A stretch of DNA of 53,500 bases from IMG/VR virus record IMGVR_UViG_3300028840_003032, positions 1 through 53,500 of that record. One strand, given 5' to 3'. A model generated the notes under the pieces. That model saw nothing but the letters and a program-made list of their open reading frames with translations, was not told the origin of the DNA and made no database searches. Source of the DNA: a virus. Lineage: Duplodnaviria > Caudoviricetes. Positions within the stretch are counted from its first letter, which is position 1. Each line of letters begins with the position of its first letter. Positions 22,977-38,547 of this stretch are shown in pieces. The position numbers and the translations under genes are program-made.

Positions 22977-22986
22977 AAAAAAGGGA

Positions 22987-23050
22987 AACGGGGGACGGGG
23001 AAACCCCCTTACACACAGCCCGAAAAAGGGCGAAAAAAAAGGAGTCCAAA
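22987..23050 (+). promoter_or_regulatory. Conserved two-hairpin intergenic element plus RBS, copy 1
   Basis: GGGGG-acggggaaa-CCCCC, ttacacaca, GCCC-gaaaaa-GGGC, A-run, GGAGTCCAAA. Near-copy at 50082-50142. Confidence 0.7.
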
Positions 23051-24238
23051 ATGGGGAAAGCAAGAAACGAATTAGACGATGATGGAAGGCGAAAGGTAGA
23101 ATGTCTTGAGTGCGGCGGGAAATACTACCATCGCCTTGACGTCCATCTCCCGGCGAAGCACAAGATCAAGGTAGCGGATTACCGGGCGAAATATCCCGGC
23201 GCCGCCACCATGAGCGAGTACGCGAAAGAACGCGCCTCCAAAGCCCAAAGCGGCCGGGGAAAAGTCGCCGCCCCGAAGACGCCCACGACGCACACGGAAA
23301 AGGCCGAAGAAACTCGCATCGAAGTTGAGGGCGAGTATCGCATCGGCGTTGCGCGCCTCCACAAGAGAGACGACCTCACAGAGCTGGACAAAGCCTACGT
23401 CCCGAAGCACGACGAAAATTACATTTTCGGGGACGTCGAAATGGAGAACTGGGAGGATGTCGCGGTGGGCATCGAAGACGGCGAACCCGTCTACATCGGC
23501 GGACCGACCGGGTGCGGCAAGACGATGGGGGTGATGGAGATGGCGGCGGTCCTCAATCAACCCGTTCGGCGCGTCCAGTTAAACCGCGATTTCAAGGTGG
23601 GGGAATTCGTGGGACGCGGAACGCTCGTCACGGACGATGACGGGAACACGATCACGGGGTGGAAGGACGGCGTGCTGACCGAGGCGATGAGGAACGGATG
23701 GTGGCTCTTGCTCGACGAAATCGATCAGTCGCATCCCGACGTTCTGATGAAGCTTCAAGCGGTGCTCGAAGGGTCGCCGCTGGTCCTCACCGAGAATTTC
23801 GGGGAGGTCGTTCGACCTCATCCCCGGTTCCGGGTCATCGCGACGGCGAACACTTTCGGACGCGGCGATGAGGCGGGTTTGTACGTCGGAGCGAAGGTGA
23901 TGAACGAGGCGATGATGGACCGCTTCGGAGTCGTCATCAAGGCCGAATACCCGAAAGCCGAAACCGAGGTCACGATCATTTCGCGTCGCACGGGACTCGG
24001 GAAGCGCGAAGCGATGAAGATGGTGAAGGTCGCGCACAAGGTTAGGGAGGCGCTGGAGAAAGAGGAATGTTGTTGTACGTTCTCGACCCGTCGCCTGGTC
24101 GCCTGGGCGCACAAGACGGTTCGCTATCGGGGAGACGCGCGCAGGGCGTCGAAGACGGCCATCTTGAATAAGATGGAGACGGAGGATGCCCGCTTCGTTA
24201 ACCACCTGGTCCAGCGCTACTTCGGCGGTGAGGTATAG
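23051..24238 (+). CDS. MoxR/CobS-like AAA+ ATPase with an N-terminal C2H2 (Ros/MucR-like) zinc finger
   Basis: GPTGCGKT, LLLDEID, 'HPRFRVIATANT' and 'FSTRRL'. N-terminal CLEC..YHRLDVHL..KH. Start at the RBS motif (23051). Confidence 0.9.
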   Translation: MGKARNELDDDGRRKVECLECGGKYYHRLDVHLPAKHKIKVADYRAKYPGAATMSEYAKERASKAQSGRGKVAAPKTPTTHTEKAEETRIEVEGEYRIGVARLHKRDDLTELDKAYVPKHDENYIFGDVEMENWEDVAVGIEDGEPVYIGGPTGCGKTMGVMEMAAVLNQPVRRVQLNRDFKVGEFVGRGTLVTDDDGNTITGWKDGVLTEAMRNGWWLLLDEIDQSHPDVLMKLQAVLEGSPLVLTENFGEVVRPHPRFRVIATANTFGRGDEAGLYVGAKVMNEAMMDRFGVVIKAEYPKAETEVTIISRRTGLGKREAMKMVKVAHKVREALEKEECCCTFSTRRLVAWAHKTVRYRGDARRASKTAILNKMETEDARFVNHLVQRYFGGEV

Positions 24239-24245
24239 AAAGGAG

Positions 24246-26420
24246 ATGGAGACGATGTCTAAGAGAAAATCGAATCTACTCCTTGGGGACTTCGAAAAAG
24301 TAGCGCGGGCGATGGCCGGTCGCTACGACATCAAGGTGGTCGCTTCCAACGCTTGCGCGACGGACGGTCGCACGATTTACTTCCCCTCAAACGCGGACGA
24401 TTTCGACGCGCATACGCTCAATCAGTTGAGCGGCTACAACGACCACGAGGTGGGGCATATCCGCGAAGAGGACCGCCACGCACTCGCCGGGAAGGAGACG
24501 CCGATCACGATCATAAGTCGCCTTCCGACGTCGAAGCAGAAAATGTTCTTCAATATCTTCGACGACATCCGGATGGAGCGACGGGAAGCGCAAGAGCACG
24601 TGGGCGTCGCAGAGAATCTTCGCGCATCGGCCGATTACTGTAAAAAGGTAATCGCGAAAGAAGCGAAGCGCGGCAAGGTCGATTTCTGGAGGGGACTCGG
24701 GACGGGCATCCTGGCGAAAGCCCACGGGCAGAAGGCGAGCTGGCTCACGCCCGCCCATAAGCCCTACATGGACGCAATCGAAGAGGAGATTGAGGAGTGC
24801 TGCGACATCACGAAGACGGTTTGGGGTTCGGACGTCGAAAACCTCGTTGAGCGCGTCCTCATCAAGCTGAACGAGACGGCTGAGGCGCTGGAAGAGGAGA
24901 AAGAGCGACGGGAAGAGGAGAAGAAGCGGAAAGAGGAAGAAGAGAAGCAGGAGCAGGAGGGTGAGGAGGAAGGGAGCGCCGGGGAAGGCGACGAAGAGGG
25001 TGGCGAGGAAGGTGAAGAGGAGAGTGAGGAGAACGGCACAGGAGATGAGATGGAGGAGGGTGAGGGCGACGGGTCAGGGACGGGCGCTGGCGATGAGGAG
25101 GGAGAGGAAGAGGATGGCGAGGGTGCGGCCGACTCGGACGGGACCGATGACGGAGAAGACCTTGGGGCGAGCGATGGCGAGGACGGCACGAGCGAACCCG
25201 GAACGCCGGATGCGGGCGAGGGTGAGGAGAACGGCAGCGAGGATGGGGCGGACTCCGATGAGGGCGCCGATACCGACGACACCACGGGAAGCGATGGCGC
25301 GGACGCTAGCGGCAAGGAGTCGAAGCGGAATCAGAATCTGGACGACGAAGACGATGGCGGGGAGTTCTCCGACCTGAGCGATGAGGAGCTGGAAGAAGCG
25401 GCGGACCTGGCCGATGAGGTTGCGAAGGACGCGGCGACCGACGACCTGATGGATGAGCTCAAAGACGAGATCAACAAGAAAGCGAAAAGCGCTCACGAGC
25501 GCACCGGTCGATACGCGGCCACGACGCAAGCGTTGAAAGAGGATGAATGGTTCGCGCCTCACAAGGATGAGGCCGCATACGAGGCGGCGAAGAAGACCGT
25601 TGCGCCGCAGATCAAGGGGATGAAGTCGAAGCTCATCAACCTCATCCGGTCTCAGGCGGAAGATACGATGGTGGGGGACCGGGAAGAGGGAGACTTGGAC
25701 GATGACGCTCTTCATACCGTCCGGACCGGGAACCGGAGAGTGTATACCCAGCTGGTGAACGGGACTCCGCTGGACACGGCGGTTTCTATCCTCATCGATC
25801 AAAGCGGGTCGATGGGAGGTAGCCGGATCAAATGCGCGAGGGAGATGGCGGTGGCGTTGGGCGAGACGTTCAACGCTCTGGGCGTACCTTTCGAGATCAT
25901 CGGGTTTGAGAATCGTTACCTCAAGCACGGTCGCTCGATCACTCAAGGCGAGGCCACGAACCCTTCGCTCAGGAAGAAGCGTTACAACTTCCGGACCTTC
26001 AAGACCTTCGATGAGTCCTATCGCCGCGTGAAGGCTCGCTTGGGAAATTGCCACGCCCACGGCGATAACGCCGATGGCGAGGCGGTGCTTGAGACTGCGA
26101 AGCGTCTTATCGTCCGCCCCGAAAGTCGCAAGCTTCTTTTCGTCCTGAGCGACGGTCAACCCGCTTGCGCCGGAACTAGCCGACACGTCTTGGCGAATCA
26201 CCTCAAGGAGGTTATCGAGAAAGTGACCGCAAGCGGAATCGAGGTCATCGGAATCGGTTGCGAGTACGAAGGCGTGAAAGAATACTATAACGAAGAACAC
26301 GGCGCCTCTCACACCGTTGTTTACGACGTCCAGAAACTGGCCGTCAAGGTCTACAAGATCATGAAAGATCAACTGCTGGGGAAAGGTCGGAAGCGCGGCC
26401 GGAAAGGAGCTGCGGCATGA
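24246..26420 (+). CDS. CobT-like VWA protein (N-terminal HExxH, acidic linker, MIDAS); start 24246 or 24255
   Basis: 'ATDGRTIY', 'DHEVGH', a long D/E/G linker, 'LIDQSGSM' MIDAS and 'VLSDGQP'. Confidence 0.9.
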   Translation: METMSKRKSNLLLGDFEKVARAMAGRYDIKVVASNACATDGRTIYFPSNADDFDAHTLNQLSGYNDHEVGHIREEDRHALAGKETPITIISRLPTSKQKMFFNIFDDIRMERREAQEHVGVAENLRASADYCKKVIAKEAKRGKVDFWRGLGTGILAKAHGQKASWLTPAHKPYMDAIEEEIEECCDITKTVWGSDVENLVERVLIKLNETAEALEEEKERREEEKKRKEEEEKQEQEGEEEGSAGEGDEEGGEEGEEESEENGTGDEMEEGEGDGSGTGAGDEEGEEEDGEGAADSDGTDDGEDLGASDGEDGTSEPGTPDAGEGEENGSEDGADSDEGADTDDTTGSDGADASGKESKRNQNLDDEDDGGEFSDLSDEELEEAADLADEVAKDAATDDLMDELKDEINKKAKSAHERTGRYAATTQALKEDEWFAPHKDEAAYEAAKKTVAPQIKGMKSKLINLIRSQAEDTMVGDREEGDLDDDALHTVRTGNRRVYTQLVNGTPLDTAVSILIDQSGSMGGSRIKCAREMAVALGETFNALGVPFEIIGFENRYLKHGRSITQGEATNPSLRKKRYNFRTFKTFDESYRRVKARLGNCHAHGDNADGEAVLETAKRLIVRPESRKLLFVLSDGQPACAGTSRHVLANHLKEVIEKVTASGIEVIGIGCEYEGVKEYYNEEHGASHTVVYDVQKLAVKVYKIMKDQLLGKGRKRGRKGAAA

Positions 26421-27526
26421 CGGTTCATTTCCCGAAAGGCGCCCGGTGTCCCGACGAATACCACGAGATGTGGCCGCAACTCGAAAAGCAAATGCTCCCC
26501 TACATCAAAGCAAAAGCGAAGCGCATCAAGACGTTCACGGGCGGACTCGATATGGACGACGCAATTCAAGAGGGACGTCTTGCGCTACTCTCGGTCATCA
26601 TCAAGGGTAAATACGACTACACGAAAGGCGAGTTGGGGAGGTACATCGGGAAGGTTCTCGACAATACGTACCGCAGCATGCTCTATCAAATGCTAAGCCA
26701 GACTAGGATGCCGCGCGCAATCGTGAGGGGAGACGGCGGGGAGTGGGTGGAACTCCCGGCTCCACCGATGTCTCTCAACGGCTTAGAGGCGGACCCAGGA
26801 GGATGGGGCGATGACGTCGGGAATCGAACTGCTCTCTCAAAGGCGCTCACCGAAGCGGAAGTCCCAACGCCGGAAGGGTTCATCGAGTATCAAGAGATGG
26901 AGGAGCAAGCGAAGATTTTTAAACTCAAGCTTCTCAATAGCCTGAAGGGGAGGGACAAAAAGGTTTTCGAGTGCCGCACAAATCCGCCCGTCGATTTTCT
27001 CAAGATGGTGGAGAATATCGGCGGTGATATCTACAATCCCACGATACCTCAGATTGCGGAATACCTGGGCATCAATAAGAATGCCGTTGACTATTCGATT
27101 AGCAAGATCAAATCGGTATTTACGCGCATGGCGCGCCAAGAAGAATTCAGCGACCTTTTTGGAGAACGGTTAGAGACGAAAGAGTGGCCGATGATAAGAA
27201 TGAGTAGGACAGCGAAGCACGACCGCGAATTTGTACGACGAATCATCCAACAACGAGAACTGGACCCCAAGCCGGTCGAAGGGTACGAGAGTGAACCCGA
27301 CTTCTATCAAAAGGCGGGGATGTATAGTCGGCTCATCGAGCGATACCCTTGGGGAGTGGTTCTGGTCGTTAGGAGGAAGGGCACTTGGAGGACGATGGTC
27401 ATCGAGTGTACCGCTTTCAACTCTTCTAGCGGTTCGATTTCGGGAGAACGGGGGACCAAAGAAAAAGTCCCCGTGAAATGGTATCCTCAATTGGTGAAAG
27501 CCTTAGCAGAAGGGACGAAGTCATGA
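26417..27526 (+). CDS. Sigma70-family phage sigma factor with a C-terminal extension
   Basis: Region 2 'DMDDAIQEGRLALL...YD..KG....Y' and region 4 HTH 'TIPQIAEYLGINKNAV'. Confidence 0.75.
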   Translation: MTVHFPKGARCPDEYHEMWPQLEKQMLPYIKAKAKRIKTFTGGLDMDDAIQEGRLALLSVIIKGKYDYTKGELGRYIGKVLDNTYRSMLYQMLSQTRMPRAIVRGDGGEWVELPAPPMSLNGLEADPGGWGDDVGNRTALSKALTEAEVPTPEGFIEYQEMEEQAKIFKLKLLNSLKGRDKKVFECRTNPPVDFLKMVENIGGDIYNPTIPQIAEYLGINKNAVDYSISKIKSVFTRMARQEEFSDLFGERLETKEWPMIRMSRTAKHDREFVRRIIQQRELDPKPVEGYESEPDFYQKAGMYSRLIERYPWGVVLVVRRKGTWRTMVIECTAFNSSSGSISGERGTKEKVPVKWYPQLVKALAEGTKS

Positions 27527-28374
27527 GCGACGTTTCCGCACCTCCCCTTTCGCATTGTATCGGGGAATACGAGAACGGAGATTCAACATGCGACGGCGGG
27601 GACGGGGAAGCACCTTGCTCGTGGAAGGAACGTTGCGCCGCGTTCCAGCTACACCTTACAAAGACCGGCCAGCAAGCGAGTCGCTATGTGAAGTACGGCG
27701 CAAAGAAGACGGACGGCGACACGCATTACTACGCTGAGCCCAAAACCTCGTTGGAGGAGTTCGCCCGATTCTGCGATGGCCTCATCGGCAAGGAGACGAA
27801 GACGCAAGCGCCGGTCGTTGAGGAGGAAGAAGAGAAGAAGAGGAAAACGAGAAGCGATAAGTATGGTCACGACAAGCGCCGGGACGGACCCTCAGCAAGG
27901 GCCAAGCGGGCGGCAGCGGCATCGCTCAAACGCAGAGCGAAGGAACGCCGGGAAGCGCTGTACAAATTGTTCGACGGTTTCAAGAACCAACTCGTGGAGG
28001 AGTTAGACGGACCGGAGTTTGCGCCGGCAGGGTTGCCCGTCTCCCACGGGTTTCTCTACATCTCGGACAGGACGTCCTCAAGCAACTACCTTTCGGTGTA
28101 CTGCCGCACGATGAACGGATGGGACGCGCCTCTCATCATGCTTACCTTCCGGACGTCGCAGCTCAAGTTCCTCGCGCAACTTCCGGTTACTCCGGACGTG
28201 CTCGCAACGGCGATGTCGAAGAAAGACTTCAAGAAGCTGAAGCCCAAAGATACGGACGAAGGACGTTTCAGGAGCGCAATCGAAAACGTCGGCAAGGCGG
28301 AATTGTCCTTGCTCGCGGAAGTTATCGCCAAGCTGGTCAATGGCGGTAAAATAGAATTGCCCGAAGCGAGGTGA
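27523..28374 (+). CDS. Hypothetical protein with an N-terminal Cys cluster
   Basis: ATGA-coupled to the sigma gene; C-x10-C-x8-C-x5-C. Confidence 0.7.
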   Translation: MSDVSAPPLSHCIGEYENGDSTCDGGDGEAPCSWKERCAAFQLHLTKTGQQASRYVKYGAKKTDGDTHYYAEPKTSLEEFARFCDGLIGKETKTQAPVVEEEEEKKRKTRSDKYGHDKRRDGPSARAKRAAAASLKRRAKERREALYKLFDGFKNQLVEELDGPEFAPAGLPVSHGFLYISDRTSSSNYLSVYCRTMNGWDAPLIMLTFRTSQLKFLAQLPVTPDVLATAMSKKDFKKLKPKDTDEGRFRSAIENVGKAELSLLAEVIAKLVNGGKIELPEAR

Positions 28375-28376
28375 CC

Positions 28377-28477
28377 CCGGATGTTATCCCCACATCCGGC
28401 TTTGCCTCCCTCTCCACGGGCACCTCGCCGCACGGCGGTAGGATTTGGACTCCCCTGCCGTCGTGCGGCCCTTTTTT
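28377..28477 (+). ncRNA. Candidate 3'UTR-derived small RNA: three hairpins with C-rich anti-SD loops
   Basis: Stems 28377-84/28392-99 (loop UAUCCCC), 28403-07/28418-22 (loop CCCUCUCCAC) and 28427-42/28454-69 (loop AUUUGGACUCC). Confidence 0.55.
28427..28477 (+). terminator. Rho-independent terminator of early operon 1
   Basis: 16-bp GC-rich stem (two G-U pairs) followed by CC and a U6 run. Confidence 0.8.
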
Positions 28478-28490
28478 ATCCTGAGAGGCT

Positions 28491-29453
28491 ATGAAGAGAG
28501 TAGTCATCGTTGGAGGCGGTATATCCGGCCTCATTTGTTCCTACGTCTTTCGCAAACGCAAAGACGTTCGAACGACTATCTTGGAGCCCAATCGAATAGG
28601 AGGCGAGTTCATCGCGGGCGGTTTGAAGTACATCCATCGAACGGACGCGATGGCGAGTATGCTCATCGACCTGGGATTGATCTTCTCCAACTACGTTACC
28701 CGTGGAGGCATACTGCTTCGCGGGAAGGTGCTCCCGTATCCCAAGTGTTTGAGGAGCATGGAAACCGAAGAGGCGAGACGCATCCAGGACGATCATTATC
28801 GCAAGACGCGATTAGCCGAACCGGGGAAGCATTCGGCAAGAGCGATGAACGACCCCGCAAGCACGAAACCGCGAAAGGCGTTGCGCACGGATTTCGTCTC
28901 ACTCATCGAGTCGTTGGCGGCGGGAAACGAGTTCATCCGACTCCCGTTGAAAAGCGTAATGAGGCACGCGGTTATCTTGGGAGACGGAAGGCTCATCCCG
29001 TATGATTACCTTGTGATGACGATTCCCCTATGGGCGATTCGTCGGTGCGTTGATTGGTACGTCCCTCACGGCATCGCGATGAAGCTGAACATCGTTAACA
29101 TGGCCCCACGGCGCGATAGGTTCGCAAAGTGGGATTACGTTTACACCCCCTACACTCCGGAAAACGCGGTCCACCGCTTCTCAATTCAGGACGCTGGGTA
29201 CGCAGTCGAAGTGAACGGCGAATTGGATATGGATAGGGTCGCCGGGGACTTGAACTTCATCTTCAGTAGCGGGTGGGCGATACGGAATATCCAACGCGAC
29301 TTGAAGGGGCATTTGCTTCCGTTGAAAGAGAAGACGGAATGGCCGTCCAACGTCGCTCCCATCGGACGGTTCGCGCAATGGGATTCGCGGATCACGGCGG
29401 ACGTTACCCTTGAGGACGCGGAGAAGCTAGCCAGGAGGTGGTTCGGTGGATAG
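28491..29453 (+). CDS. FAD-dependent oxidoreductase, UDP-galactopyranose-mutase-like fold
   Basis: Rossmann 'VVIVGGGISGL', 'YDYLVMTIPL' and C-terminal 'IGRFAQWD'. Confidence 0.7.
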   Translation: MKRVVIVGGGISGLICSYVFRKRKDVRTTILEPNRIGGEFIAGGLKYIHRTDAMASMLIDLGLIFSNYVTRGGILLRGKVLPYPKCLRSMETEEARRIQDDHYRKTRLAEPGKHSARAMNDPASTKPRKALRTDFVSLIESLAAGNEFIRLPLKSVMRHAVILGDGRLIPYDYLVMTIPLWAIRRCVDWYVPHGIAMKLNIVNMAPRRDRFAKWDYVYTPYTPENAVHRFSIQDAGYAVEVNGELDMDRVAGDLNFIFSSGWAIRNIQRDLKGHLLPLKEKTEWPSNVAPIGRFAQWDSRITADVTLEDAEKLARRWFGG

Positions 29454-30387
29454 GTGGGAGGAGATTTTCAAGCTTCAAGCGGCGCAGCAGGAGTCGTTCG
29501 GGATGGGTCCCCAGGAACTATCCCCGGTGGCCCGTTCGGAGGTAGCGAACCACCTATGCCTGGGGTTATACGAAGAAGCCGCAGAGCTTGCTCGTACAGC
29601 TGTTAGATTCAAGCGTCATCTACTACGCACGCCGCCCGTAGACCACAGCGAGGTCGTGGAAGAGGCGGCAGACGTCGTGAAATACGTGGTGGCGATAGCC
29701 CAACTCCACGGAATCGACGCAGAAAGCCTATTCTCGGCAATCCTTCGTAAGACCGATGTGGTGAAGGACCGGGCGGAAGGCGAGCAACTGGAACTGACCC
29801 GCGATAGTCGGATCATCCTCGTGGACTTGGACGGTTGCGTGGCCGACTTAGGACCGCTGGAGACGCTCACGGACGGGCGCCCCATCGAAGAGAAAGAGCG
29901 AATCAAAAAGGACTTCCGGCGCCGTGGGGGATTCCGGGACTTGCCCGTGGTGGAAGGAGCGCAAGAGGGATTAGCCGAATTGCGGCGCAACGGCTACAGG
30001 ATAGCGTTCGTCACCGCACGTCCCTACCGGCAGCACAAGAGACTCTACGCCGACACGGTCGAATGGTTGAGAATGAACGACATCGAGTATGAGCTACTTC
30101 TCTTTCAAAGGGATAAGGCGGAAGCACTCGTGGACTACATCTTCCCAGCGCGGCCGATATGCTTCATCGAAGACCGGGAGAAGCACGCATTGGAGATCAT
30201 CGCGACGGGAACCCACGTGTTGCTCCTCGATAGGAAGATGGATGGGCCGGTTCGCGTTTCGGACGGTCCGTTGATTACGAGAGTTTGGAACTGGGAAGGG
30301 ATACTCAATTGGGTGGAGAGCCAAGGAGAACGAAATGAACCCCGAACCGAAAGTGACGTTGGTAACGTGGACGAAGAATCCGCTTGA
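29446..30387 (+). CDS. MazG/all-alpha dNTP pyrophosphatase fused to a HAD 5'(3')-nucleotidase
   Basis: 'GLYEEAAEL...VVEEAADVVKY' (EExxE..ExxD), then 'LVDLDGCVAD', 'FVTARP' and 'FIEDR'. Confidence 0.85.
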   Translation: MDRWEEIFKLQAAQQESFGMGPQELSPVARSEVANHLCLGLYEEAAELARTAVRFKRHLLRTPPVDHSEVVEEAADVVKYVVAIAQLHGIDAESLFSAILRKTDVVKDRAEGEQLELTRDSRIILVDLDGCVADLGPLETLTDGRPIEEKERIKKDFRRRGGFRDLPVVEGAQEGLAELRRNGYRIAFVTARPYRQHKRLYADTVEWLRMNDIEYELLLFQRDKAEALVDYIFPARPICFIEDREKHALEIIATGTHVLLLDRKMDGPVRVSDGPLITRVWNWEGILNWVESQGERNEPRTESDVGNVDEESA

Positions 30388-31315
30388 GACGGTGTACGCC
30401 GTTTGGATGGCGAGTAAGAACGAAGAAGCGTTGATTGATCCGGCGCAGTTGTCCGGCGCCCTCAGGTCGCAATATTCGGAGGTGTCGCCCAACTTACCGT
30501 CTCAAGAAGAAGTCGAGACGCTTTTCAAAGCGGTCATCGCGCAACGTATTCCGATTGGGGAGCACGTTGATTTCGTCTTCGTGATGGAGAACGTTTCGGT
30601 GTCGTGGAGGGAGCAAGCGGTGAGGCACCGCATCGGAGTCGAGATTAGCCCAGAGCGATTGGGCATCGACCTCATCCCGGATTTGGCGAAGTCGAGTTGG
30701 TGGTCGCAGTCGATGCGAATCCAAAACATGGGCGAGTTCGCTAGCAACGGCGCGTATCGTCTCCCGGCGACGGTCAAGGGCCACGGCGAGATCACCGACA
30801 CGTACCACGAGACGATGAAGACGGTCCAAGACGCTTACAACAAGTTGGTGGCGGCGGGAGTCCCGATGGAGGACGCACGTGAACTAATCCCGTTGGGCGC
30901 TCATCATCGCATCTCATGGAAGCTCAACATCGGCGCCCTTCAGCATATCATCGGGAAGCGCGGGTGTTGGATACTTCAATTGGGAATCTGGGGTCCGGTT
31001 ATCCGGGGGATGATAGACGAGTTGGCGACGAAAGTGAATCCCATCTTCCGTGATCTCGTTCGACCTCCTTGCTTGAACGATTCGGACGATGAGCTGCCCT
31101 ACACGGGATGCGTCTATATGGAGGAGTGTCGGCGCCGGTTAACCGGAGACGACGCGCTGCCGCCGTGTCCGATTCATCTCAACTACGAAGGGAAGCACGA
31201 AGAGGGATTGGACCTACACAAACCCGTTCCGATGCTAGCGCAGATGAAAGAACGCGCAAAGCAATACGAGAAATTCTGGGGGAGAAATCCATACACAGGA
31301 GAGAAGATCAAATGA
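30335..31315 (+). CDS. thyX: Flavin-dependent thymidylate synthase (ThyX)-like protein, atypical motif
   Basis: 'EHVDFVF..ENVS...EQAVRHR' ... 'SQSMR', 'GVPMEDARELIP' and a Cys-rich C-terminus. Confidence 0.8.
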   Translation: MNPEPKVTLVTWTKNPLETVYAVWMASKNEEALIDPAQLSGALRSQYSEVSPNLPSQEEVETLFKAVIAQRIPIGEHVDFVFVMENVSVSWREQAVRHRIGVEISPERLGIDLIPDLAKSSWWSQSMRIQNMGEFASNGAYRLPATVKGHGEITDTYHETMKTVQDAYNKLVAAGVPMEDARELIPLGAHHRISWKLNIGALQHIIGKRGCWILQLGIWGPVIRGMIDELATKVNPIFRDLVRPPCLNDSDDELPYTGCVYMEECRRRLTGDDALPPCPIHLNYEGKHEEGLDLHKPVPMLAQMKERAKQYEKFWGRNPYTGEKIK

Positions 31316-32523
31316 GTAAGCGAGTCATCGTTTTGGGAGGAGACGGATTCTGCGGTTGGCCCACGGCGCTTCATTTATCCGAGCAGGGTATGGAGGTCGC
31401 CATCCTCGACAACTTCGTGAGGCGGCAATACGACTTCGAACTGGGTTGTGAGTCCGCTACTCCGATTGCGTCGCTTGCGACGCGCCTCGATGCGTACCGG
31501 GAAAGAAGCGGGAAGGAGATCAAAGCATATGTGGCGAATATGCTCGATGCCGAAAGGCTCAAAGCGATTCTCCAGGACTTCGGACCGGACGCCGTGGTCC
31601 ATTTCGCAGAGCAACGCGCCGCCCCATACTCGATGATCGATAGGCGGCACGCCGTCTACACCCAACGCAACAACGTGCTGGGGACGTTGAATTTGATCTA
31701 CGCTATTCAAGACGTTGCGCCCGATTGCCACCTCATCAAGCTAGGAACGATGGGCGAATACGGAACGCCGAACATCGACATCGAAGAGGGGTGGCTCAAC
31801 GTCGAGCACAACGGCCGGAAGGACCGGGTGTTGTATCCGAAGTCCCCAGGCTCCTGGTACCATCTCTCCAAAGTCCACGACTCGGCAAACCTCGAATTCG
31901 CTTGCCGCATCTACGGTCTCAGGGTCACCGACCTCAATCAAGGAGTCGTCTATGGGGCCACGACTCCGGAGATAAAAGTGGCGCAAGACGAACGCTTGGT
32001 GAACCGTCTCGACTATGACGGGACTTTCGGAACGGCGCTCAATCGGTTCTGCGTCCAAGCCGTGCTCGATATTCCTCTCACCGTGTACGGGACGGGCAAG
32101 CAGACGAGAGCATTCATCAACATCGTCGATACCGTGCGATGTATTCGCATCGCGGTAGACAACCCGGCCAAGCGTGGAGAGTTTAGAGTCTTCAATCAAT
32201 TCACCGAACAGTGGAGCGTGATGGCGCTGGCGGAATTGGTCCGCAAGGTAGGTCGGGAACGTTTCGGAAGAGAGGTCCACATCGCGCAACTCGAAAACCC
32301 GCGCATCGAAAAGGAAGAGCATTACTACAACGCCAAGAATACGGAGTTGCCCGCGTTGGGTCTCGACCCTTACTTGCTAACCGAGGACGTGGTCCATTCC
32401 ATCATGCGGCACTGCTTGTTGTATAAGACTCGTTGCGACCCGCAAGTCGTGAAGACCGGCGTGAAGTGGAAGGAGACGGACAACGCGGCGCTTTCCGGAT
32501 TCGTAGCAAGGAGAGGCTCATGA
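31312..32523 (+). CDS. sqdB: UDP-sulfoquinovose synthase (SqdB/SQD1/Agl3 family)
   Basis: Family-specific strings GGDGFCGWPTALHLS, HFAEQRAAPYSM, HLIKLGTMGEYGTPNIDIEEG, YHLSKVHDS, DLNQGVVYG and FRVFNQFTE. Confidence 0.9.
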   Translation: MSKRVIVLGGDGFCGWPTALHLSEQGMEVAILDNFVRRQYDFELGCESATPIASLATRLDAYRERSGKEIKAYVANMLDAERLKAILQDFGPDAVVHFAEQRAAPYSMIDRRHAVYTQRNNVLGTLNLIYAIQDVAPDCHLIKLGTMGEYGTPNIDIEEGWLNVEHNGRKDRVLYPKSPGSWYHLSKVHDSANLEFACRIYGLRVTDLNQGVVYGATTPEIKVAQDERLVNRLDYDGTFGTALNRFCVQAVLDIPLTVYGTGKQTRAFINIVDTVRCIRIAVDNPAKRGEFRVFNQFTEQWSVMALAELVRKVGRERFGREVHIAQLENPRIEKEEHYYNAKNTELPALGLDPYLLTEDVVHSIMRHCLLYKTRCDPQVVKTGVKWKETDNAALSGFVARRGS

Positions 32524-33665
32524 GCTACTTGATGGACACAATCGAATTCCGCGAACGAAAGATCATCGGCGGGGACGGCGCATACCTGATCGACGAAGAC
32601 GGGAACCGGCTATTGGACTTTCACTCCGATACCGGCGCATCGGCGTTGGGGTACAATCACGCGGCCGGTCGTGGGGCGCTCGCATCGATGCTCGGCAACG
32701 AGATTCCTATCCACTCCATCAACTTGTACCCGTTCAAAGAGAGGGAAGAAACGGCCGAAGGACTTTGCGAGGCGACGGATATGGACCGCGTGTTCTTCTG
32801 TAACAGCGGAACGGAAGCGGTGGAGGCGTGTATCAAACTTGCTCGCCTCCACCAGCATCGTCACGGCGGGGGACGCAACGGGATTTGGACGTTGAGAAAA
32901 GGATTTCACGGGCGCACGTACGCATCGATGCGAGCGACGGACGGACCGCCATACCACACCGAAGGATTCGGCCCACACCTTGAGGAGTTCTATCGATGGG
33001 ATTGGGACGACATCGGGGCGATAGATAAGAACGCCGCTGCGGTGCTGATGTCGCCCGTTCTCGGTCATCACGACGTAATGCCGTACACCCAAGACCAACT
33101 TCAGTCGATTCGAGACTATTGCGACCGGCACGGCATCCTCCTAATCTTCGATGAAGTCCAAAGCGGTAGTGGGAGGACGGGCGCGTGGCTTTACGCGCAG
33201 AAGGTAGGAGTGATGCCCGACATCGCGGCGCTGGGGAAGGGAATTGCTTGCGGGTTCCCTGCTGCGGCGTGTCTTGCGCGGGGAGACGTTGCGGATACCT
33301 TCACTCCAGGAACCCACTACAGTACCTTCGGAGGGAGCCCAGCATCGTGCGTCTTCATCAACGCGATGCTCGACTACATGACGCCCGGTTTCCTCAAGGG
33401 CGTGGAGCATCGCGGAAAGTACGCGATGGACCTGATGTACTCGTTGGGGTGGTTCAACGAGGTAATCGGGGAAGGTCTTATGATCGCGGGTTACTCCGAC
33501 GTGGACGCAAGGGAGTTCGCCAAGCGTTGCGAGAAAGAGGACTTGATAATTGGAGCGTGGAGAGTTAACCCCATCCGCGTTTCGCCCGTCCTCGACATCC
33601 CCTATGAAGACATCGAAAAGGGAATTGAAATAATGGACCGCGTGTATCGGGAGATGACGCGATGA
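32520..33665 (+). CDS. Class-III PLP aminotransferase (ArgD/acetylornithine-type fold)
   Basis: 'FFCNSGTEAVE', 'FHGRT', 'LIFDEVQSGSGRTG', 'PDI..LGKG' and 'HYSTFGGSP'. Confidence 0.9.
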   Translation: MSYLMDTIEFRERKIIGGDGAYLIDEDGNRLLDFHSDTGASALGYNHAAGRGALASMLGNEIPIHSINLYPFKEREETAEGLCEATDMDRVFFCNSGTEAVEACIKLARLHQHRHGGGRNGIWTLRKGFHGRTYASMRATDGPPYHTEGFGPHLEEFYRWDWDDIGAIDKNAAAVLMSPVLGHHDVMPYTQDQLQSIRDYCDRHGILLIFDEVQSGSGRTGAWLYAQKVGVMPDIAALGKGIACGFPAAACLARGDVADTFTPGTHYSTFGGSPASCVFINAMLDYMTPGFLKGVEHRGKYAMDLMYSLGWFNEVIGEGLMIAGYSDVDAREFAKRCEKEDLIIGAWRVNPIRVSPVLDIPYEDIEKGIEIMDRVYREMTR

Positions 33666-34207
33666 TACTACTCTTCGAAGGCGTGAACGGAGTCGGAAAG
33701 ACGACCTACATTCGCCAAGTAGAGAAGCGGACCGGGTGGCCCGCATATAGCGCCTTCCGGGGAAGGGCCAACAAGTACGATTCCGCGATGCTCGAAAAGC
33801 TCTCACGGTTGGGCGTCCCCGTTAACACCTTCGTGGACGAGATGTACATGACGGACTTGGTCCGTTCACTTGGGCTCAACATCATAGTGGACCGTTCATT
33901 TCCTTCCGCAGTAGCCTACGATCAGGTGTACGGCCAAGGGACGTTCGTTGATGTAGAAGAGACGGCCAAAATTTGGTTAGACCTCGTGCGGGAAGCGGGG
34001 ATGCTATACGTTTGGTTGCGGGCGCCTTACGAAGTCGCGCACGCAAGGTGTACGGGCGTTCGTATCGGTGAAGACGAATCGGAGGCGCTTGAGGAGCATT
34101 ATCGATATTGGTATGATCGCTTGTGCGTCGAGAAGATGATGATTGATACGTCGCTGCTAGACGTAGCGGAAGGTGTAGAAAGAGTTTGCCGAGCCTTGAA
34201 GAAATAA
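33662..34207 (+). CDS. dNMP (thymidylate-like) kinase
   Basis: 'ILLFEGVNGVGKTT' P-loop and 'IIVDRSFPSAVAY' dTMP-kinase motif. Confidence 0.8.
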   Translation: MILLFEGVNGVGKTTYIRQVEKRTGWPAYSAFRGRANKYDSAMLEKLSRLGVPVNTFVDEMYMTDLVRSLGLNIIVDRSFPSAVAYDQVYGQGTFVDVEETAKIWLDLVREAGMLYVWLRAPYEVAHARCTGVRIGEDESEALEEHYRYWYDRLCVEKMMIDTSLLDVAEGVERVCRALKK

Positions 34208-34659
34208 GAGAGTGGCTGCGCGGCAAGCGCGTGAACGGTTTACCGGACCGCAAGGGCAAATGGGACCTTCCGGGAGACGGCGTGAAGCGTCGCAAGGGCG
34301 TAGACATCGGCAAGATGGAAGATGCGACCGAAGCGATGAGGAAGTTCGGAAACGCGGCGATGAGAGCGAAGTACAAGATCAACGCCGATGGGGACGATGC
34401 CGTGCTACTCTTCGGAAAGCACAGCGGCAAAAGGGTTTCCGCGTTAGCAAAGGGTTATCCGGATTATTTGAGGTGGCTTCTCCAGCAAGACTTCCCCGAA
34501 GACCTCGTTGAGATAGTGAAGTACCGACTCCAGAAGCGATACGCGCCCGGTTCAATTCGATTCGAAGCGTTCACAGGGACGGGGAAACCTCCAGAACATT
34601 TCAACGCTCGTTGTAAGGTGGTCACCGAAGACGACTTGGAAGAAGATGAAAAAGAGTAA
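34186..34659 (+). CDS. Protein with an exonuclease-X C-terminal-like (DUF3820-like) module
   Basis: 'LLFGKHSGKRV..LAKGYPDYLRWLL'. Confidence 0.6.
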   Translation: MPSLEEIREWLRGKRVNGLPDRKGKWDLPGDGVKRRKGVDIGKMEDATEAMRKFGNAAMRAKYKINADGDDAVLLFGKHSGKRVSALAKGYPDYLRWLLQQDFPEDLVEIVKYRLQKRYAPGSIRFEAFTGTGKPPEHFNARCKVVTEDDLEEDEKE

Positions 34660-37600
34660 GAAGAAAAAGAAGAAGCGCAAGGAAGATTTCGTACACCTCC
34701 ACGTCCATAGCGATATGAGCCAACTCGATGGGTGCGGCAAGATAGCGGACTATGTAGAGACGGCCGCGAAGAGGGGAGCACCGGCCGTTGCTTTCACCGA
34801 GCACGGGACGATGCGAGGCTACCACGCCGCCCATACCGCTTGCGAGGAGCACGACATCAAAGCGATTCACGGCGTTGAGTTCTACGTCGCAAACGATATG
34901 AAGCGCAAGGGCCTCACGGCGGAAGAGAAAGAGGAGATCACCAAAGGACTAAAGACAGCGGAGAAGAAAGTGGCCATCCGAGAATACGAACAGCGTCATG
35001 GTATTCGGGACCGATGGCATCTTACCGTTTGGGCGAAAGATAACGTGGGATTGAAGAACCTATTCAAATTGACGAGCGCATCTTACATGGACGGGTTCTA
35101 CTACAAACCGCGCATCGACATCCCGACCCTTTTGGAGTACGGGGACGGTCTCATCGTAGCGACGGGGTGCCAGTCCAGCTCCGTGTACGACCGGGCCATC
35201 AACGGGAAGCGCAAGCAAGCGTTCGCAGAGGCGGAACGTTTGCGCGAAAGGTTCGGAGAAGACTTGTGGCTGGAGATACAGCCGCACGCGATGGAAGACC
35301 AAGTCGTTGCGAACAAATTCGCGATGGAATTGAAAGAGCGTTGGGGCCATCACGCTCGTCTCCTAGCTACTCAGGACGCGCATTATGTCGAACCGACCGA
35401 CGCAGTCCATCAAGAAGTCCTCTTGTGCATCGGAACGAATGACGTGATGTCGAACCCGGACCATTTCAAATTCGATTTGGACGAGTTCTATTTCAAGACG
35501 CGCAAGCAGATGAGAGAGACGTTTTTGGAGCATCACTCCTACATGGGGAAGAAAGCGATCAAGGAAGCGCTGGACGGGACGATGCTTTTGTCGGAGATGG
35601 TCGGAGCGAAAGTGAACATCGACTATCACGCAGCGCTTCTTCCCGATGTAGAGATACCTCCTGAGCATCGGAACGAATGGAGGTACTTGAAGGCACTTTG
35701 CTTCGAAGGGTGGCTATGGAGAGACCTGAACGAGCGCATCGCGAAAGTAGCGCAACGCCGGGGAGAGAACGTTGAGAGGACGCGCCGTGAGTACAAGGAC
35801 CGCTTGATGTACGAATTGAACGCCCTCAAGCGGCAGAAGTTCATCCGATACTTTCTCATGGTACACGACATCTATCGCTTTGCGCGTGAGAATCGAATCA
35901 TGTGCGGCCCTGGGCGCGGTTCGGTTTCGGGAAGTCTCGTTTCATTTCTCTTGGGGCTAACGTCCGTTGATCCTATCGAGCACGGCCTCATCTTCGAACG
36001 GTTCATCAATCCGGACCGTGTTGATATGCCGGACGTGGATATGGATTTCGAAGACGGGCGCCGCCAAGAGATCATCCAATACTTGCGCGACAAATATGGG
36101 GAGAGTCGCGTGGCCCAGATAGCCACCGTGACGAAGTTAACCGGGAAGCAATGCCTCAAGGACGTGAGCCGCGTTCTGGAAGTCCCCTATGCGGACGTGA
36201 ATGAGGTAACGAATAGTATCATCGAGCGCTCAAGCGGCGATGAACGCGCCAGCCAAACCATCGAGGACTCGTTCAAGGACTTCAAGGTGTGTCGCGAGTT
36301 CAATAAAAAATATCCGGATGTTCTCAAGCACGCAAAGCGTTTAGAGGGACTTGCGAAGAACCTCGGCATACACGCGGCAGGAGTAGTAGTTGCGCCGTCT
36401 GATGTCGAAGAATACGTCCCATTGGAGGTACGGAAGAAAGACGGGAAGGACATCGTGGTCACGGCGCTCGATATGCACGGCGTCTCCGCTATGGGTTTAG
36501 TGAAGCTCGATGTATTGGGCTTGCGGACCCTCACCGTGTTACGCAATTGCTTAGACGCCGTTGAGGAGCGCCACGGACTCGATATTGATTTGGAATCGGA
36601 CGTTGAGTTGAACGACAAGGACGTGCTCGACCTCTTCACCGATCACGAGTATGTAGGTATCTTCCAATATGATACTCCCGGCGCCGACAAGATTTGTTCG
36701 GGCGTGAACTTCGAATCGTTTGAAGACGTCGCAGCGATGACCGCGTTGAACCGTCCGGGAACGGCGCGCAGCGGGTTGGCCGGTCGATACGTTGAGAGGA
36801 AGAAAGACCCATCTAAGGTAGGTGAGGACGCCTTCCATCCGAAGGTAACTGAGCTCACCTCCGATACGTTGGGCATCATCGTCTATCAAGAGCACGTGAT
36901 TAAAATCTTCACAGAGATAGCCGGGTTTGCTCCCGGCACGGCCGATTCGTTACGCAAGTCCATCGCGAAGAAGTATGGAGACGAGACCATCGGGAAGGAG
37001 CGAACGAACTTCATCAAAGGCGCGATGGAGAAAACCGGGATGAGCGAGAAAGAAGCGGCCAAGATAATGGACGCAATCACGTTCTTCGGTTCCTACGGTT
37101 TCAACAAGAGCCACGCAACCGCATACGGCATCATCGCCTATTGGGGGATGTGGCTCAAGAAATACTACCCCATCGAGTTCTACTGGTCGATGCTAAAGAA
37201 CGAACCGAACCGCATCCGCATACAGCAGGTCGCCAAGGACGCGAAGAAGCACGGCATCCAGTTACTCCCACCGGACGTCTCCGTCAGTAGGAGCGACTTT
37301 GCCATCGACCCTAACCCCAAGCTCAAAGCAATTCGCGGTAGCCTAGTGGACATCAAAGGCGTTGGGAAGAAAGCGGCGGAAACGATAATGGCGAACCAGC
37401 CATACACGAGCTTCACCGACTTCGTCAAGCGGGTCGATAGGAGGAAATGCCACAAGGGCGTCGTGCTCGCCTTGGCGAAGTCCGGAGCGCTGGACTCGTT
37501 CGTTCCGAACGTCAGGTGGCTAGTCGAGAACATAGAAACTTTTTGGGGCGACGTAGGGAAGGGAGAAGCGGCAGAGAAGCAAATCCGGAAGTTGTTGCGG

Positions 37601-38482
37601 GCGTCGAAAGAAGAACCGGACTATGCGAAGGAGGAACGGCAACTGATCGCCTCGCAAGTGAACCCACTCGCCTTCGGTCGTCATCCCATCGACGCCTATG
37701 GGGACTTCATCGAGAAGAACATACACGTCCCAATCGAGTCGATGGGTGAAGACGATTTCTTCAAGAGGAACGATGGGAAGGCGGTATACATCGCGGGCGT
37801 AATCGTCGAAGTCAAGTACAACCAAATAGGCGACTTCCATACCGGAGAACTACCGCCCGAAAGGGAGCGTGAGAAAATCTTTTGGGGCGCCCGATACGCG
37901 AACGTGAACGTGGAGGACGCAAGCGGCGTTCAGAACCGGATCAAGTTCGGCATCGACGTTTTCGATGAGATGCGCCCGTTGATCGATGCGGGCATCGGGA
38001 CTCCCGTTATAGTCCACGCCATCGCAAACGGTAAGTTCGAAAATTTGAAAGCAGACTTCGCGGTGGACCTCGAAACGTACCGGAAGAAAGTTGAAGCGGG
38101 CGATGAGCTATCCCTATGGGAGAACCTAGTAGCAGGGCGGCATCCCGCTTTAACGCGGAAGTGGAAGAAAGAAGCGACGAAGAAGAAGAGGACGGAGCAT
38201 CCGTGGGTAGATGATCGGTCGTCTCCAGGAGACGTTTTCTGCGGCGTCGTAACCCACGTTCAAAAGAAGATAGACCGGGCAGACCGTGAGATGGCCTTTT
38301 TCGGATTGATGGGGGCGGACCGCCACATCGAGGTCATCTGCTTCGGTTCGCATTGGGAGGAGGCGCGCAAGCATTTCGTTCCCGGCAAGCTAGTAGTCGC
38401 AGCGATTGAAAAGCAACGCGACTCTCGCAGGAAGGGATGGGCGTTCTTTTACAACGGTGGAGGAGTCCGTCAACTGAATTAA
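34646..38482 (+). CDS. dnaE: DNA polymerase III alpha subunit (family C)
   Basis: PHP 'HLHVHS', 'GPGRGSVSGSLV', 'FERFINPDRVDMPDVDMDF', 'HAAGVV', 'KLDVLGL', 'YGFNKSHA' and a C-terminal OB region. Confidence 0.97.
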   Translation: MKKSKKKKKKRKEDFVHLHVHSDMSQLDGCGKIADYVETAAKRGAPAVAFTEHGTMRGYHAAHTACEEHDIKAIHGVEFYVANDMKRKGLTAEEKEEITKGLKTAEKKVAIREYEQRHGIRDRWHLTVWAKDNVGLKNLFKLTSASYMDGFYYKPRIDIPTLLEYGDGLIVATGCQSSSVYDRAINGKRKQAFAEAERLRERFGEDLWLEIQPHAMEDQVVANKFAMELKERWGHHARLLATQDAHYVEPTDAVHQEVLLCIGTNDVMSNPDHFKFDLDEFYFKTRKQMRETFLEHHSYMGKKAIKEALDGTMLLSEMVGAKVNIDYHAALLPDVEIPPEHRNEWRYLKALCFEGWLWRDLNERIAKVAQRRGENVERTRREYKDRLMYELNALKRQKFIRYFLMVHDIYRFARENRIMCGPGRGSVSGSLVSFLLGLTSVDPIEHGLIFERFINPDRVDMPDVDMDFEDGRRQEIIQYLRDKYGESRVAQIATVTKLTGKQCLKDVSRVLEVPYADVNEVTNSIIERSSGDERASQTIEDSFKDFKVCREFNKKYPDVLKHAKRLEGLAKNLGIHAAGVVVAPSDVEEYVPLEVRKKDGKDIVVTALDMHGVSAMGLVKLDVLGLRTLTVLRNCLDAVEERHGLDIDLESDVELNDKDVLDLFTDHEYVGIFQYDTPGADKICSGVNFESFEDVAAMTALNRPGTARSGLAGRYVERKKDPSKVGEDAFHPKVTELTSDTLGIIVYQEHVIKIFTEIAGFAPGTADSLRKSIAKKYGDETIGKERTNFIKGAMEKTGMSEKEAAKIMDAITFFGSYGFNKSHATAYGIIAYWGMWLKKYYPIEFYWSMLKNEPNRIRIQQVAKDAKKHGIQLLPPDVSVSRSDFAIDPNPKLKAIRGSLVDIKGVGKKAAETIMANQPYTSFTDFVKRVDRRKCHKGVVLALAKSGALDSFVPNVRWLVENIETFWGDVGKGEAAEKQIRKLLRASKEEPDYAKEERQLIASQVNPLAFGRHPIDAYGDFIEKNIHVPIESMGEDDFFKRNDGKAVYIAGVIVEVKYNQIGDFHTGELPPEREREKIFWGARYANVNVEDASGVQNRIKFGIDVFDEMRPLIDAGIGTPVIVHAIANGKFENLKADFAVDLETYRKKVEAGDELSLWENLVAGRHPALTRKWKKEATKKKRTEHPWVDDRSSPGDVFCGVVTHVQKKIDRADREMAFFGLMGADRHIEVICFGSHWEEARKHFVPGKLVVAAIEKQRDSRRKGWAFFYNGGGVRQLN

Positions 38483-38547
38483 TCAGCGGCGGGCGTTCAA
38501 CTTCGGTAGTAGCTATCAGAGTCGATGTGACGAAGAATTTGAGAGAT

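Follow-up and report, generated by a model that had tools for sequence, protein, structure and literature searches.

A conserved ThyX-centred gene block in an uncultured phage, with an inserted UDP-sulfoquinovose synthase gene: a possible route to a modified deoxyuridine nucleotide

The window analysed here is the whole of a 53.5-kb IMG/VR virus record (IMGVR_UViG_3300028840_003032; 53,500 nucleotides (nt)). It comes from an uncultured marine or sediment phage and is 54% complete according to CheckV, so that 46% of the genome is unseen. At 28491-38482, eight plus-strand genes each overlap the next and end in the phage's own DnaE. Five of these genes, among them one for a divergent homolog of the thymidylate synthase ThyX, recur together in related phages, and we tentatively propose that they supply a modified deoxyuridine nucleotide for replication. 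A further gene of the block, for the UDP-sulfoquinovose synthase SqdB, was found in the window and in no related locus. The features are as follows (aa, amino acids; ORF, open reading frame; FAD, flavin adenine dinucleotide; PLP, pyridoxal phosphate).

28491-29453, plus strand: FAD-binding flavoprotein, 320 aa (Pfam, AlphaFold/Foldseek, Atlas)
29446-30387, plus strand: fusion of MazG and NT5C/HAD domains (Pfam MazG, NT5C)
30335-31315, plus strand: divergent ThyX (Thy1) homolog, 326 aa (Pfam Thy1, Foldseek)
31312-32523, plus strand: SqdB (UDP-sulfoquinovose synthase), 403 aa (alignment with SQD1 1qrr, NF041015)
32520-33665, plus strand: class-III, ArgD-like PLP aminotransferase, 381 aa (Pfam Aminotran_3)
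33662-34207, plus strand: TMPK-like P-loop kinase, 181 aa (phrog_761)
34186-34659, plus strand: small conserved ORF between kinase and DnaE, 157 aa
34646-38482, plus strand: DnaE (DNA polymerase III alpha), 1278 aa (relatives 57-68% identical)
28457..28480, plus strand: terminator-like hairpin with a T-run, inside 28375-28490, the sole intergenic gap upstream of the module

An earlier note on this DNA had described six overlapping, coupled genes that run through one small ORF into DnaE. All of them are present on the plus strand, with overlaps of 4-53 nt; from the flavoprotein through DnaE the successive overlaps measure 8, 53, 4, 4, 4, 22 and 14 nt. The start of SqdB was revised to 31312, as homology opens near residue 71 of the longest ORF, and that of the aminotransferase to 32520, as homology opens near residue 30 of its ORF. 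Both revised ATG codons have a GGAG-type site ahead of them and form an ATGA overlap with the upstream stop codon. The Pfam and NCBIfam scores (Thy1 72.8, Aminotran_3 237, Epimerase 78 and UDP-sulfoquinovose synthase 486.8 bits) rule out chance ORFs. Furthermore, two runs that belong to two studies each contain one Logan contig (18,267 and 17,490 nt) that spans positions 27000-36000 with 0 differences, although one or both runs may be the source of the window; the order of the ThyX-like, SqdB and aminotransferase genes is therefore no assembly chimera. In a megablast search with 28400-38500 no GenBank phage matched, and an exact-pattern scan of metagenome contigs with the 3' end of the window, aimed at the unseen half of the genome, also came back empty.

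The hairpin at 28457..28480 may mark the start of a transcription unit. It is its position alone that is suggestive, because terminator-like sites across the scanned region were not in excess of the shuffled expectation (14 found, 15.0 expected). The conserved upstream ORF at 27478-28374, which matched no Pfam, PHROG or NCBIfam family and had no usable Atlas match, was not counted in the module.

The gene set around the ThyX-like gene

A scan of IMG/VR guided by the profile of the ThyX-like family yielded 47 loci, which were grouped into 38 lineages (95% identity clusters). The flavoprotein, MazG/HAD, aminotransferase and kinase genes stand beside the ThyX-like gene in 19 of the 38, and DnaE was found in 16 of these 19 core-carrying loci. 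Contig ends cut three further lineages (L035, L064 and L066), L051 has the aminotransferase and a kinase only, and in the other 15 lineages the ThyX-like gene lies in a different context. The core order is shuffled: the aminotransferase comes before or after ThyX, the kinase precedes ThyX in L037, and L038 has two aminotransferases. That the core genes stay together despite this shuffling points to functional coupling. The earlier note had grouped the nucleotide-pool enzymes (MazG/HAD, ThyX homolog and kinase) with the flavoprotein and the aminotransferase, and these 19 lineages bear the grouping out. One slot of the block is variable, being filled by an ExFGGSG...HADFN protein of about 260 aa in 5 of the 19 lineages, by class-I S-adenosylmethionine (SAM) methyltransferases in L016/L035 and L063, and by SqdB in the window alone. 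No description of this module was found in the literature searched on thymidine hypermodification, ThyX hypermodification and viral sulfoquinovose.

The 15 lineages of the second context were assigned by Pfam on sampled members and by jackhmmer for the remainder. In 13 of them the ThyX-like gene is immediately followed by a family-A polymerase (PolA) gene; it is accompanied by an HD YfbR-like 5'-deoxynucleotidase in 11, by a radical-SAM/SPASM enzyme in nine and by a second, more divergent Thy1 paralog in four. As either the HAD or the HD fold was found, some deoxynucleotidase accompanies the ThyX-like enzyme in both phage types, and the two nucleotidases are predicted to be non-homologous replacements of each other. 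The putative tailoring enzymes are exchanged as well, with flavoprotein and transaminase in the DnaE type versus the radical-SAM enzyme in the PolA type. The gene order HD 5'-deoxynucleotidase, radical-SAM/SPASM, ThyX-like, PolA was observed in L042, L044, L054, L058, L062, L063 and L065. In the second Thy1 paralog, seen in L044, L057, L058 and L062, RHR is changed to xHR and the arginine of S-x-R to His.

The ThyX-like protein scored 72.8 bits with Pfam Thy1 against a gathering cut-off of 24.8, and Foldseek matched it to Thermotoga maritima ThyX (E 2e-8, TMt 0.68). It resembles canonical ThyX (T. maritima TM0449, M. tuberculosis) in its fold and in the motifs Q..RHR, S-x-R, DAR, N and KR. Unlike canonical ThyX, it falls below the cut-off of TIGR02170 (54.9 versus 87.9 bits, the match being limited to residues 152-210), an insertion of 19-30 aa separates the two halves of its motif, RHR and SxxxxSxR (SWWSQSMR), and a C-terminal extension of about 110 aa carries conserved Cys and a PPCP motif. 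In addition, the residue after S-x-R in the aligned members of the family is I, L or V, so that the equivalent of Tyr91 is missing; this part of the motif alignment was made manually, HMMER aligning only as far as RHR. Tyr91 of ThyX is described as strictly conserved and critical (PMC11940539). The family is sizeable, with 451 homologs at E<=0.001 and at least 219 clusters of 50% identity at E<=1e-30. Some members are 627-871 aa long (P0362, P0363, P0413, P0439, P0448 and P0495) and give profile matches in two or three separate stretches, a pattern that an intein or some other inserted domain would produce. Compared with the remaining family members, the window and the two relatives nearest to it have extra residues in the N-terminal variable segment, where a related-strain contig (90-95% identity) skips 78 nt (window 30424-30503).

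The flavoprotein scored 23.1 bits with Pfam NAD_binding_8 (cut-off 21.9) and had no GLF (PF03275) match in the Pfam search. Its AlphaFold model has a pLDDT of 92.4. When this model was compared with the Protein Data Bank (PDB) by Foldseek, UDP-galactopyranose mutase (UGM) 4dsg came first (TMq 0.70, TMt 0.50) and renalase 4zcd gave TMq 0.65 and TMt 0.64, with NicA2, MAO, LSD2 and PPOX matching at similar E-values. Its Atlas neighbours are clusters that are 95-100% viral, followed by PF01593 Amino_oxidase families, and its homologs comprise 185 metagenomic proteins and none in 50,697 phage records. From sequence and model together, we assign it to the PF01593 amine-oxidase/PPOX/UGM superfamily as a compact member whose own family is phage-specific. 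The next protein matched MazG at 22.2 bits (cut-off 22) and NT5C at 32.2 bits (cut-off 24.8). Its PDB match, the MazG-like 2q73, is weak (E 0.0068); 21 orthologs keep the MazG motifs EE..EL and ee..D and the HAD motifs DxD, TARP, DK and ED at 90% conservation or more. It is predicted to join an N-terminal MazG-type dNTP pyrophosphatase to a C-terminal NT5C/HAD 5'-deoxynucleotidase.

Aminotran_3 is the sole Pfam match of the aminotransferase (237 bits). The best NCBIfam model was acetylornithine transaminase NF002325, at 292.8 bits and below the cut-off of 372, and the best PDB matches were acetylornithine and succinylornithine aminotransferases (2ord, 1e-58). The PLP-Lys region, FHGRT and DEvQ.G.GR.G are kept across 23 orthologs. 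By these scores the enzyme is ArgD-like but no ArgD equivalog. The kinase matched phrog_761 'thymidylate kinase' (2e-17), its Pfam Thymidylate_kin and dNK matches lay under the cut-offs, and it had no significant match in PDB. Its P-loop G..G.GK.T and the motif DRs.pS..aY, which we take to be the TMPK signature 'DRY...S..AYQ', are kept in 24 orthologs.

The small ORF, present in 17 related loci, showed weak similarity to ExoX-like_C (E 0.003) and scored 26.4 bits with exodeoxyribonuclease X (cut-off 202). DnaE is about 33% identical to DnaE-like polymerases of Streptomyces phages. In several relatives DnaE is a single ORF about 340 aa longer (1623 versus 1278 aa; for example L024:10863-15734), with an in-frame insertion near residue 816, and the DnaE matches are split in L014, L026, L029, L032, L033 and L037. 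The insertion, which the window DnaE does not have, may be an intein.

A candidate pathway and its alternatives

Five records (the window and four relatives that are 100% complete) were searched for the enzymes of the known 5-hydroxymethyldeoxyuridine (5-hmdU) route. ThyA (PF00303), ADDT (PF18724, at E<=0.1) and HMUDK_hel (PF18723) were each found in 0 of the 5, every record has one Thy1 gene, and PF18748 was not among the Pfam matches of the window kinase. The known route through 5-hmdU, a DNA kinase and a transferase is therefore absent. Because of these absences and of the TMPK-like kinase, the pathway considered here would be wholly pre-replicative.

We are inclined, tentatively, to read the conserved core as a ThyX-based pre-replicative pathway to a deoxyuridine nucleotide that is modified at C5 and probably bears an amine, with tailoring genes that can be interchanged; of the readings considered, this accounts most economically for the pattern of conservation. 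Each chemical step is inferred from the identities, conservation and co-occurrence of the genes and from the lack of a ThyA/5-HMUDK/AADT route. The ThyX-like flavoenzyme would add a one-carbon unit to C5 of dUMP, and the PF01593-type flavoprotein and the ArgD-like aminotransferase would convert or lengthen this unit to give a side chain with an amine, such as that of 5-aminomethyl-dUMP, which a methyltransferase would tailor further in some lineages. The TMPK-like kinase would phosphorylate the modified nucleotide and the phage's own DnaE would incorporate the product, while the MazG+NT5C fusion would degrade the competing canonical nucleotide (dTTP or dUTP to the monophosphate and then to the nucleoside). 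It is possible in our view, and is put forward with slightly greater reserve, that the core alone represents a new, pre-replicative route of the ThyX type by which aminated uracil enters DNA, and that this route is widespread among uncultured phages of marine and sediment habitats.

Several observations weigh against this proposal. The ThyX-like gene is the only thymidylate synthase homolog in the four complete relatives, its alignable dUMP- and flavin-binding residues (Q, RHR, S-x-R, DAR, N and KR) are kept, and it could be the dTMP synthase of these phages with a TMP kinase beside it. A TMP kinase next to a dTMP synthase is known from many phages, and base-replacing phages are not alone in having MazG and nucleotidase domains. 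The missing Tyr and Cys 211, 246 and 259 recur in the ThyX homologs of the cultured phages LBL3, Hawkeye and Gekk3-15, and we know of no DNA modification in these phages. Because they are common to cultured-phage homologs, the ThyX deviations alone are no proof of a new activity; the conserved Cys had been considered as a marker of a non-thymidylate-synthase function and was dropped for the same reason. Two subtypes with a mutual identity of only about 32% occur in the aminotransferase slot; the second, found in other lineages, is likewise ArgD-like. The ExFGGSG protein is called a methyltransferase from its motif and sub-threshold matches only, its best PDB match being protein isoaspartate methyltransferase at E 1.2. 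A link to the Thy1 paralog gp130 of phage SP-15, whose thymine is partly replaced, is not significant (hhalign probability 3.6%), and the ThyX gene of Listeria phage LIS04, the best cultured match of the window protein, found nothing in SP-15 at E<=1e-5. The modified base itself is predicted from gene content.

Some of these points make an ordinary nucleotide supply a serious rival, if a rather unlikely one, because the ThyX-like gene is the only thymidylate synthase homolog in complete relatives and the chemistry of the modified base is inferred. Here the ThyX-like enzyme would make dTMP, the kinase would be a dTMP kinase and MazG/HAD would serve house-cleaning or the balancing of nucleotide pools. 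The flavoprotein, aminotransferase and SqdB would be auxiliary genes, of amino-acid or polyamine metabolism and of sulfolipid, that happen to sit in an early/replication operon, a supposition we find equally doubtful. The single Thy1 without ThyA in four complete relatives, the preserved ThyX fold and substrate-binding residues, the 'thymidylate kinase' PHROG match and the sharing of the ThyX deviations with cultured phages all agree with it. So do the ribonucleotide reductase genes that adjoin other viral SqdB-like genes too, and a precedent in the Cariaco Basin, where a putative viral UDP-sulfoquinovose synthase was reported as an auxiliary gene of a Mu-like virus (PMC7785012). However, ordinary supply does not explain why a phage-only flavoprotein and an ArgD-like aminotransferase are kept in the block in 19 lineages despite rearrangement, why methyltransferases are inserted beside ThyX, or why four lineages have two Thy1 paralogs. 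It likewise leaves unexplained the deoxynucleotidase, of one or the other of two unrelated folds, that goes with the ThyX-like enzyme; a nucleotidase for dTMP/dUMP would be futile beside a dTMP synthase.

A variant of this rival, which we consider improbable, keeps dTMP as the product and gives the ThyX-like enzyme its own one-carbon supply: the flavoprotein, as a demethylase of the sarcosine oxidase or LSD type, would furnish formaldehyde or methylene-tetrahydrofolate (methylene-THF). The aminotransferase, together with the methyltransferase where present, would regenerate the amine substrate of the flavoprotein, a part of the idea that is no more probable. Consistent with it, the Foldseek matches of the flavoprotein include LSD2 demethylases and amine oxidases, the PDB titles of 7ndw and 7ndz name ThyX soaked with formaldehyde or reconstituted with N5-carbinolamine flavin, and methyltransferases occur in the variable slot. 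However, most lineages lack these methyltransferases (the ExFGGSG protein is present in 5 of 19, and there are two class-I cases), and no substrate can be named; the coupled deoxynucleotidase and the radical-SAM alternative of the PolA-type phages are not accounted for either.

SqdB and the rest of the window

The SqdB protein aligned with Arabidopsis SQD1 (1qrr) at 506.9 bits (E 3.4e-151; residues 3-388 on 2-384) and is about 60% identical to it along the full length. The stretches GTMGEYGTP and YHLSKVHDS are identical in SQD1, and GGDGFCGW compares with GGDGYCGW there; these presumably are the catalytic Thr, the Tyr-His-x-x-Lys motif and the N-terminal NAD-binding glycine motif. Model NF041015, matched over positions 1-383 of its 384, scored the protein at 486.8 bits, short of the cut-off of 575. 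On this evidence SqdB of the window is assigned as a genuine UDP-sulfoquinovose synthase. Its closest relatives among 5.8 billion proteins are only 60-64% identical, and the few near-relatives with a source name come from diverse bacteria. The GC content at third codon positions (GC3, 0.715) and the codon fit (-1.010) lie inside the range of the window, indicating that SqdB is an old, adapted resident. Short contigs of 90-95% identity from two further runs map to parts of SqdB and bridge no gene junction; because they fall on this gene, near relatives keep it.

In the more distant comparison SqdB was found in 0 of the 47 related ThyX-like loci (tblastn, jackhmmer) and in 0 of 30 relatives' records, 12 of which are at least 90% complete; in these 12 near-complete relatives no PF01370-type enzyme was found. 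There was also no SqdB in 50,697 GenBank phage records at E<=1e-20. From these sequence comparisons SqdB is placed outside the conserved set, as a lineage-specific insertion between the ThyX-like and aminotransferase genes. As SqdB is inserted in this lineage only, the conserved pathway would not need it. The earlier note had counted SqdB into the pathway, which the relatives contradict. It had also pointed to gene neighbourhoods in IMG/VR, and held that sugar genes tracking with capsid or lipid glycosyltransferases, and not with thyX and the kinase, would refute the idea. There, the aminotransferase and the kinase do track with the ThyX-like gene; SqdB does not, and of the supposed sugar genes it has thus parted from thyX and the kinase while the aminotransferase has stayed.

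SqdB-like genes occur in 12 other IMG/VR contigs (41-57% identical), with which the window shares only one other gene, a UDG found on two of them. In the contigs that were looked at, these genes adjoin NeuB, cytidylyltransferase, another SDR, 2-hydroxyacid dehydrogenase and ribonucleotide reductase genes, not thyX or a kinase. Blocks with NeuB, a CMP-sugar cytidylyltransferase and a second SDR epimerase/dehydratase lie at L003:3080-8291, L004:1028-4712, L007:2947-5491 and L008:6487-9903, and the same four hold a 2-hydroxyacid dehydrogenase and a ribonucleotide reductase. They may represent a viral sulfo- or nonulosonic-sugar module.

Compared with SQD1/SqdB of the sulfolipid pathway and with the Cariaco viral gene, the window SqdB is a viral copy of a host-type gene with intact catalytic stretches, and differs from both in lying inside a nucleotide-metabolism operon, joined by ATGA overlaps. 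The SqdX/SQD2-type glycosyltransferase that is its partner in the sulfolipid (SQDG) pathway was not found in the window. Indeed no glycosyltransferase domain was found among the window ORFs, as the earlier note had observed, and GT2 and GT1 had 0 matches in the window record at its 54% completeness; such genes are rare in the clade (GT2 in 2 and GT1 in 1 of 13 records). Most likely, the SqdB product feeds a sulfo-glycoconjugate (sulfolipid or glycan) of the host or the virion; a lineage-specific tailoring step is less likely.

The idea that SqdB, aminotransferase and flavoprotein build a sulfonated or amino sugar, or an aminosulfonate, that is put on a DNA pyrimidine is highly improbable. It can call on an intact SqdB with the catalytic stretches of SQD1, codon use fully adapted to the phage, ATGA overlaps on both sides, presence in two assemblies from two studies and in near relatives (the 90-95% identity contigs), a module with a variable tailoring slot, the 46% of this genome that is unseen, and SP-15, in which sugar-nucleotide enzymes can serve uracil hypermodification (PMC5977210). 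It is disfavoured because the enzymes that it calls upon persist in the absence of SqdB: none of the 30 relatives' records or the 47 loci has SqdB, yet aminotransferase and flavoprotein are conserved, and their substrate therefore cannot depend on it. Furthermore, the transaminase that the earlier note took for a sugar-building enzyme is ArgD-like; a DegT/DnrJ/EryC1 sugar type was considered and rejected, Pfam giving class III only and the best matches being of the ArgD type. The flavoprotein which that note called UGM-like is so at the superfamily level of PF01593, but it has no GLF match and UGM is one of several equal matches. The lack of a glycosyltransferase in the window and the association of other viral SqdB genes with NeuB and cytidylyltransferase genes also speak against it. 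More improbable still, in our view, is that the ThyX-based pathway of this one lineage has recruited SqdB, so that the non-canonical pyrimidine, or the DNA with it, would bear a sulfonate, derived from sulfoquinovose or of another kind; no sulfonated DNA base would precede it. With SqdB recognised as an add-on, attention moves to the five core genes.

In the window as a whole nearly all large ORFs lie on the plus strand, the tail genes coming first and the replication block after them. The replication block includes a helicase, a DnaC-like loader, DnaB, a primase, a MoxR/CbbQ ATPase, a CobT-VWA protein and a sigma factor, and HU, RecA, SbcCD, a FEN nuclease and a UDG-family protein follow downstream. 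The MoxR/CbbQ-type AAA ATPase and the CobT-like VWA protein (window 22751-26420) stand upstream of the sigma factor, and the pair is kept in relatives. No tRNA was found in the window. The UDG-superfamily gene at window 47830-48432 stands alone within the replication block; a 2026 paper reportedly ties PolA-fused UDG to T-modified phage genomes.

Comparison with known systems

To our knowledge, thymidine hypermodification begins with a ThyA-type hydroxymethylase in every characterised case and is completed on the DNA polymer. If the proposal is correct, phages would have in the ThyX-type module another, independent biochemical way of arriving at modified DNA, one that brings a flavoprotein, a transaminase, a kinase and a nucleotide-excluding enzyme of its own and tailoring genes that can be swapped. 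Its enzymes would be new tools for the synthesis of base-modified dNTPs, and it would point to a large set of environmental phages with DNA that may withstand restriction and sequencing chemistries. The ThyX-like family, with its at least 219 clusters, is sizeable and extends over phages of two polymerase types.

The routes of M6, ViI, PaMx11, PhiW-14 and SH-Ab 15599 run through a ThyA-type dUMP hydroxymethylase, a 5-hmdU DNA kinase and an amino-acid or diamine:DNA transferase, followed by flavin lyase, PLP or radical-SAM tailoring, along with a dTTPase/dUTPase (PMC8989533, PMC13458397). In PaMx11 a flavin lyase turns N-alpha-glycinylthymidine into 5-aminomethyl-dU, and an HD protein adjoins the thymidylate synthase homolog (PMC8989533); the dTTPase/dUTPase of SH-Ab 15599 favours the modified nucleotide (PMC13458397). 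The module described here resembles these systems in having a thymidylate synthase homolog beside a phage polymerase, a dNTP pyrophosphatase/nucleotidase that would exclude the canonical nucleotide, and flavin, PLP or radical-SAM enzymes with interchangeable tailoring genes. It differs in that the C5 enzyme belongs to the ThyX (Thy1) family and not to ThyA, the kinase resembles a TMP kinase and not a DNA-base kinase, the flavoprotein is PF01593-like and not DAO-like, and the PLP enzyme is a class-III transaminase and not a decarboxylase. In accord with these differences, the kinase and the flavoprotein showed no significant similarity to PaMx11 gp49, the 5-hmdU DNA kinase (BLASTP, E 0.044 over 73 residues), and gp47, respectively.

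SP-15 (Thornevirus), in which more than 50% of thymine is replaced by 5-(4',5'-dihydroxypentyl)uracil (DHPU), has two Thy1 paralogs, gp9 and gp130, of which gp130 is hypothesised to be an hmdUMP synthase; its sugar-nucleotide and glycosyltransferase cluster is thought to build the DHPU side chain and sugar adducts (PMC5977210). Like SP-15, the window has a divergent Thy1, and some relatives of the window enzyme also have two Thy1 paralogs. SP-15 gp130 is translationally coupled to an SDR-fold gene and shares with the window family a local TG(D/E)..PPCPL motif (LTGE-VNPPCPL), but, unlike in the window, neither a class-III aminotransferase gene nor one for a PF01593 flavoprotein adjoins gp130 in SP-15. 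The LIS04 match (LIS04_124) is 27% identical over 95% (E 6e-23), and its ThyX gene is preceded by a nucleoside 2-deoxyribosyltransferase gene, as is SP-15 gp130. The LIS04 genome is 40 kb shorter than that of SP-15, and only this local synteny (deoxyribosyltransferase, then Thy1) is common to both. The taxonomy line 'Thornevirus SP15' of LIS04 (OQ999172) was considered as proof of an SP-15-type genome and dropped, as its ThyX gene is unmatched in SP-15. We regard the connection from LIS04 to gp130, seen at the level of gene order and local motifs, as a lead.

A mechanistic analogy is offered by the mnm5U modification of tRNA, in which MnmEG acts with flavin and methylene-THF and is followed by MnmC, an FAD oxidoreductase and methyltransferase (PMC8989533). 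The proposed pathway would likewise combine a flavin/folate-dependent one-carbon transfer to uracil C5 with an FAD amine oxidoreductase and sometimes a SAM methyltransferase. It would differ from the tRNA system in acting on a free deoxynucleotide and in including a transaminase, which has no tRNA counterpart, and the two are homologous only at the level of the flavoprotein superfamily. Finally, the exchange of tailoring genes between lineages of the ThyX module follows the same combinatorial pattern that Lee et al. describe for thymidine hypermodification clusters (PMC8989533).

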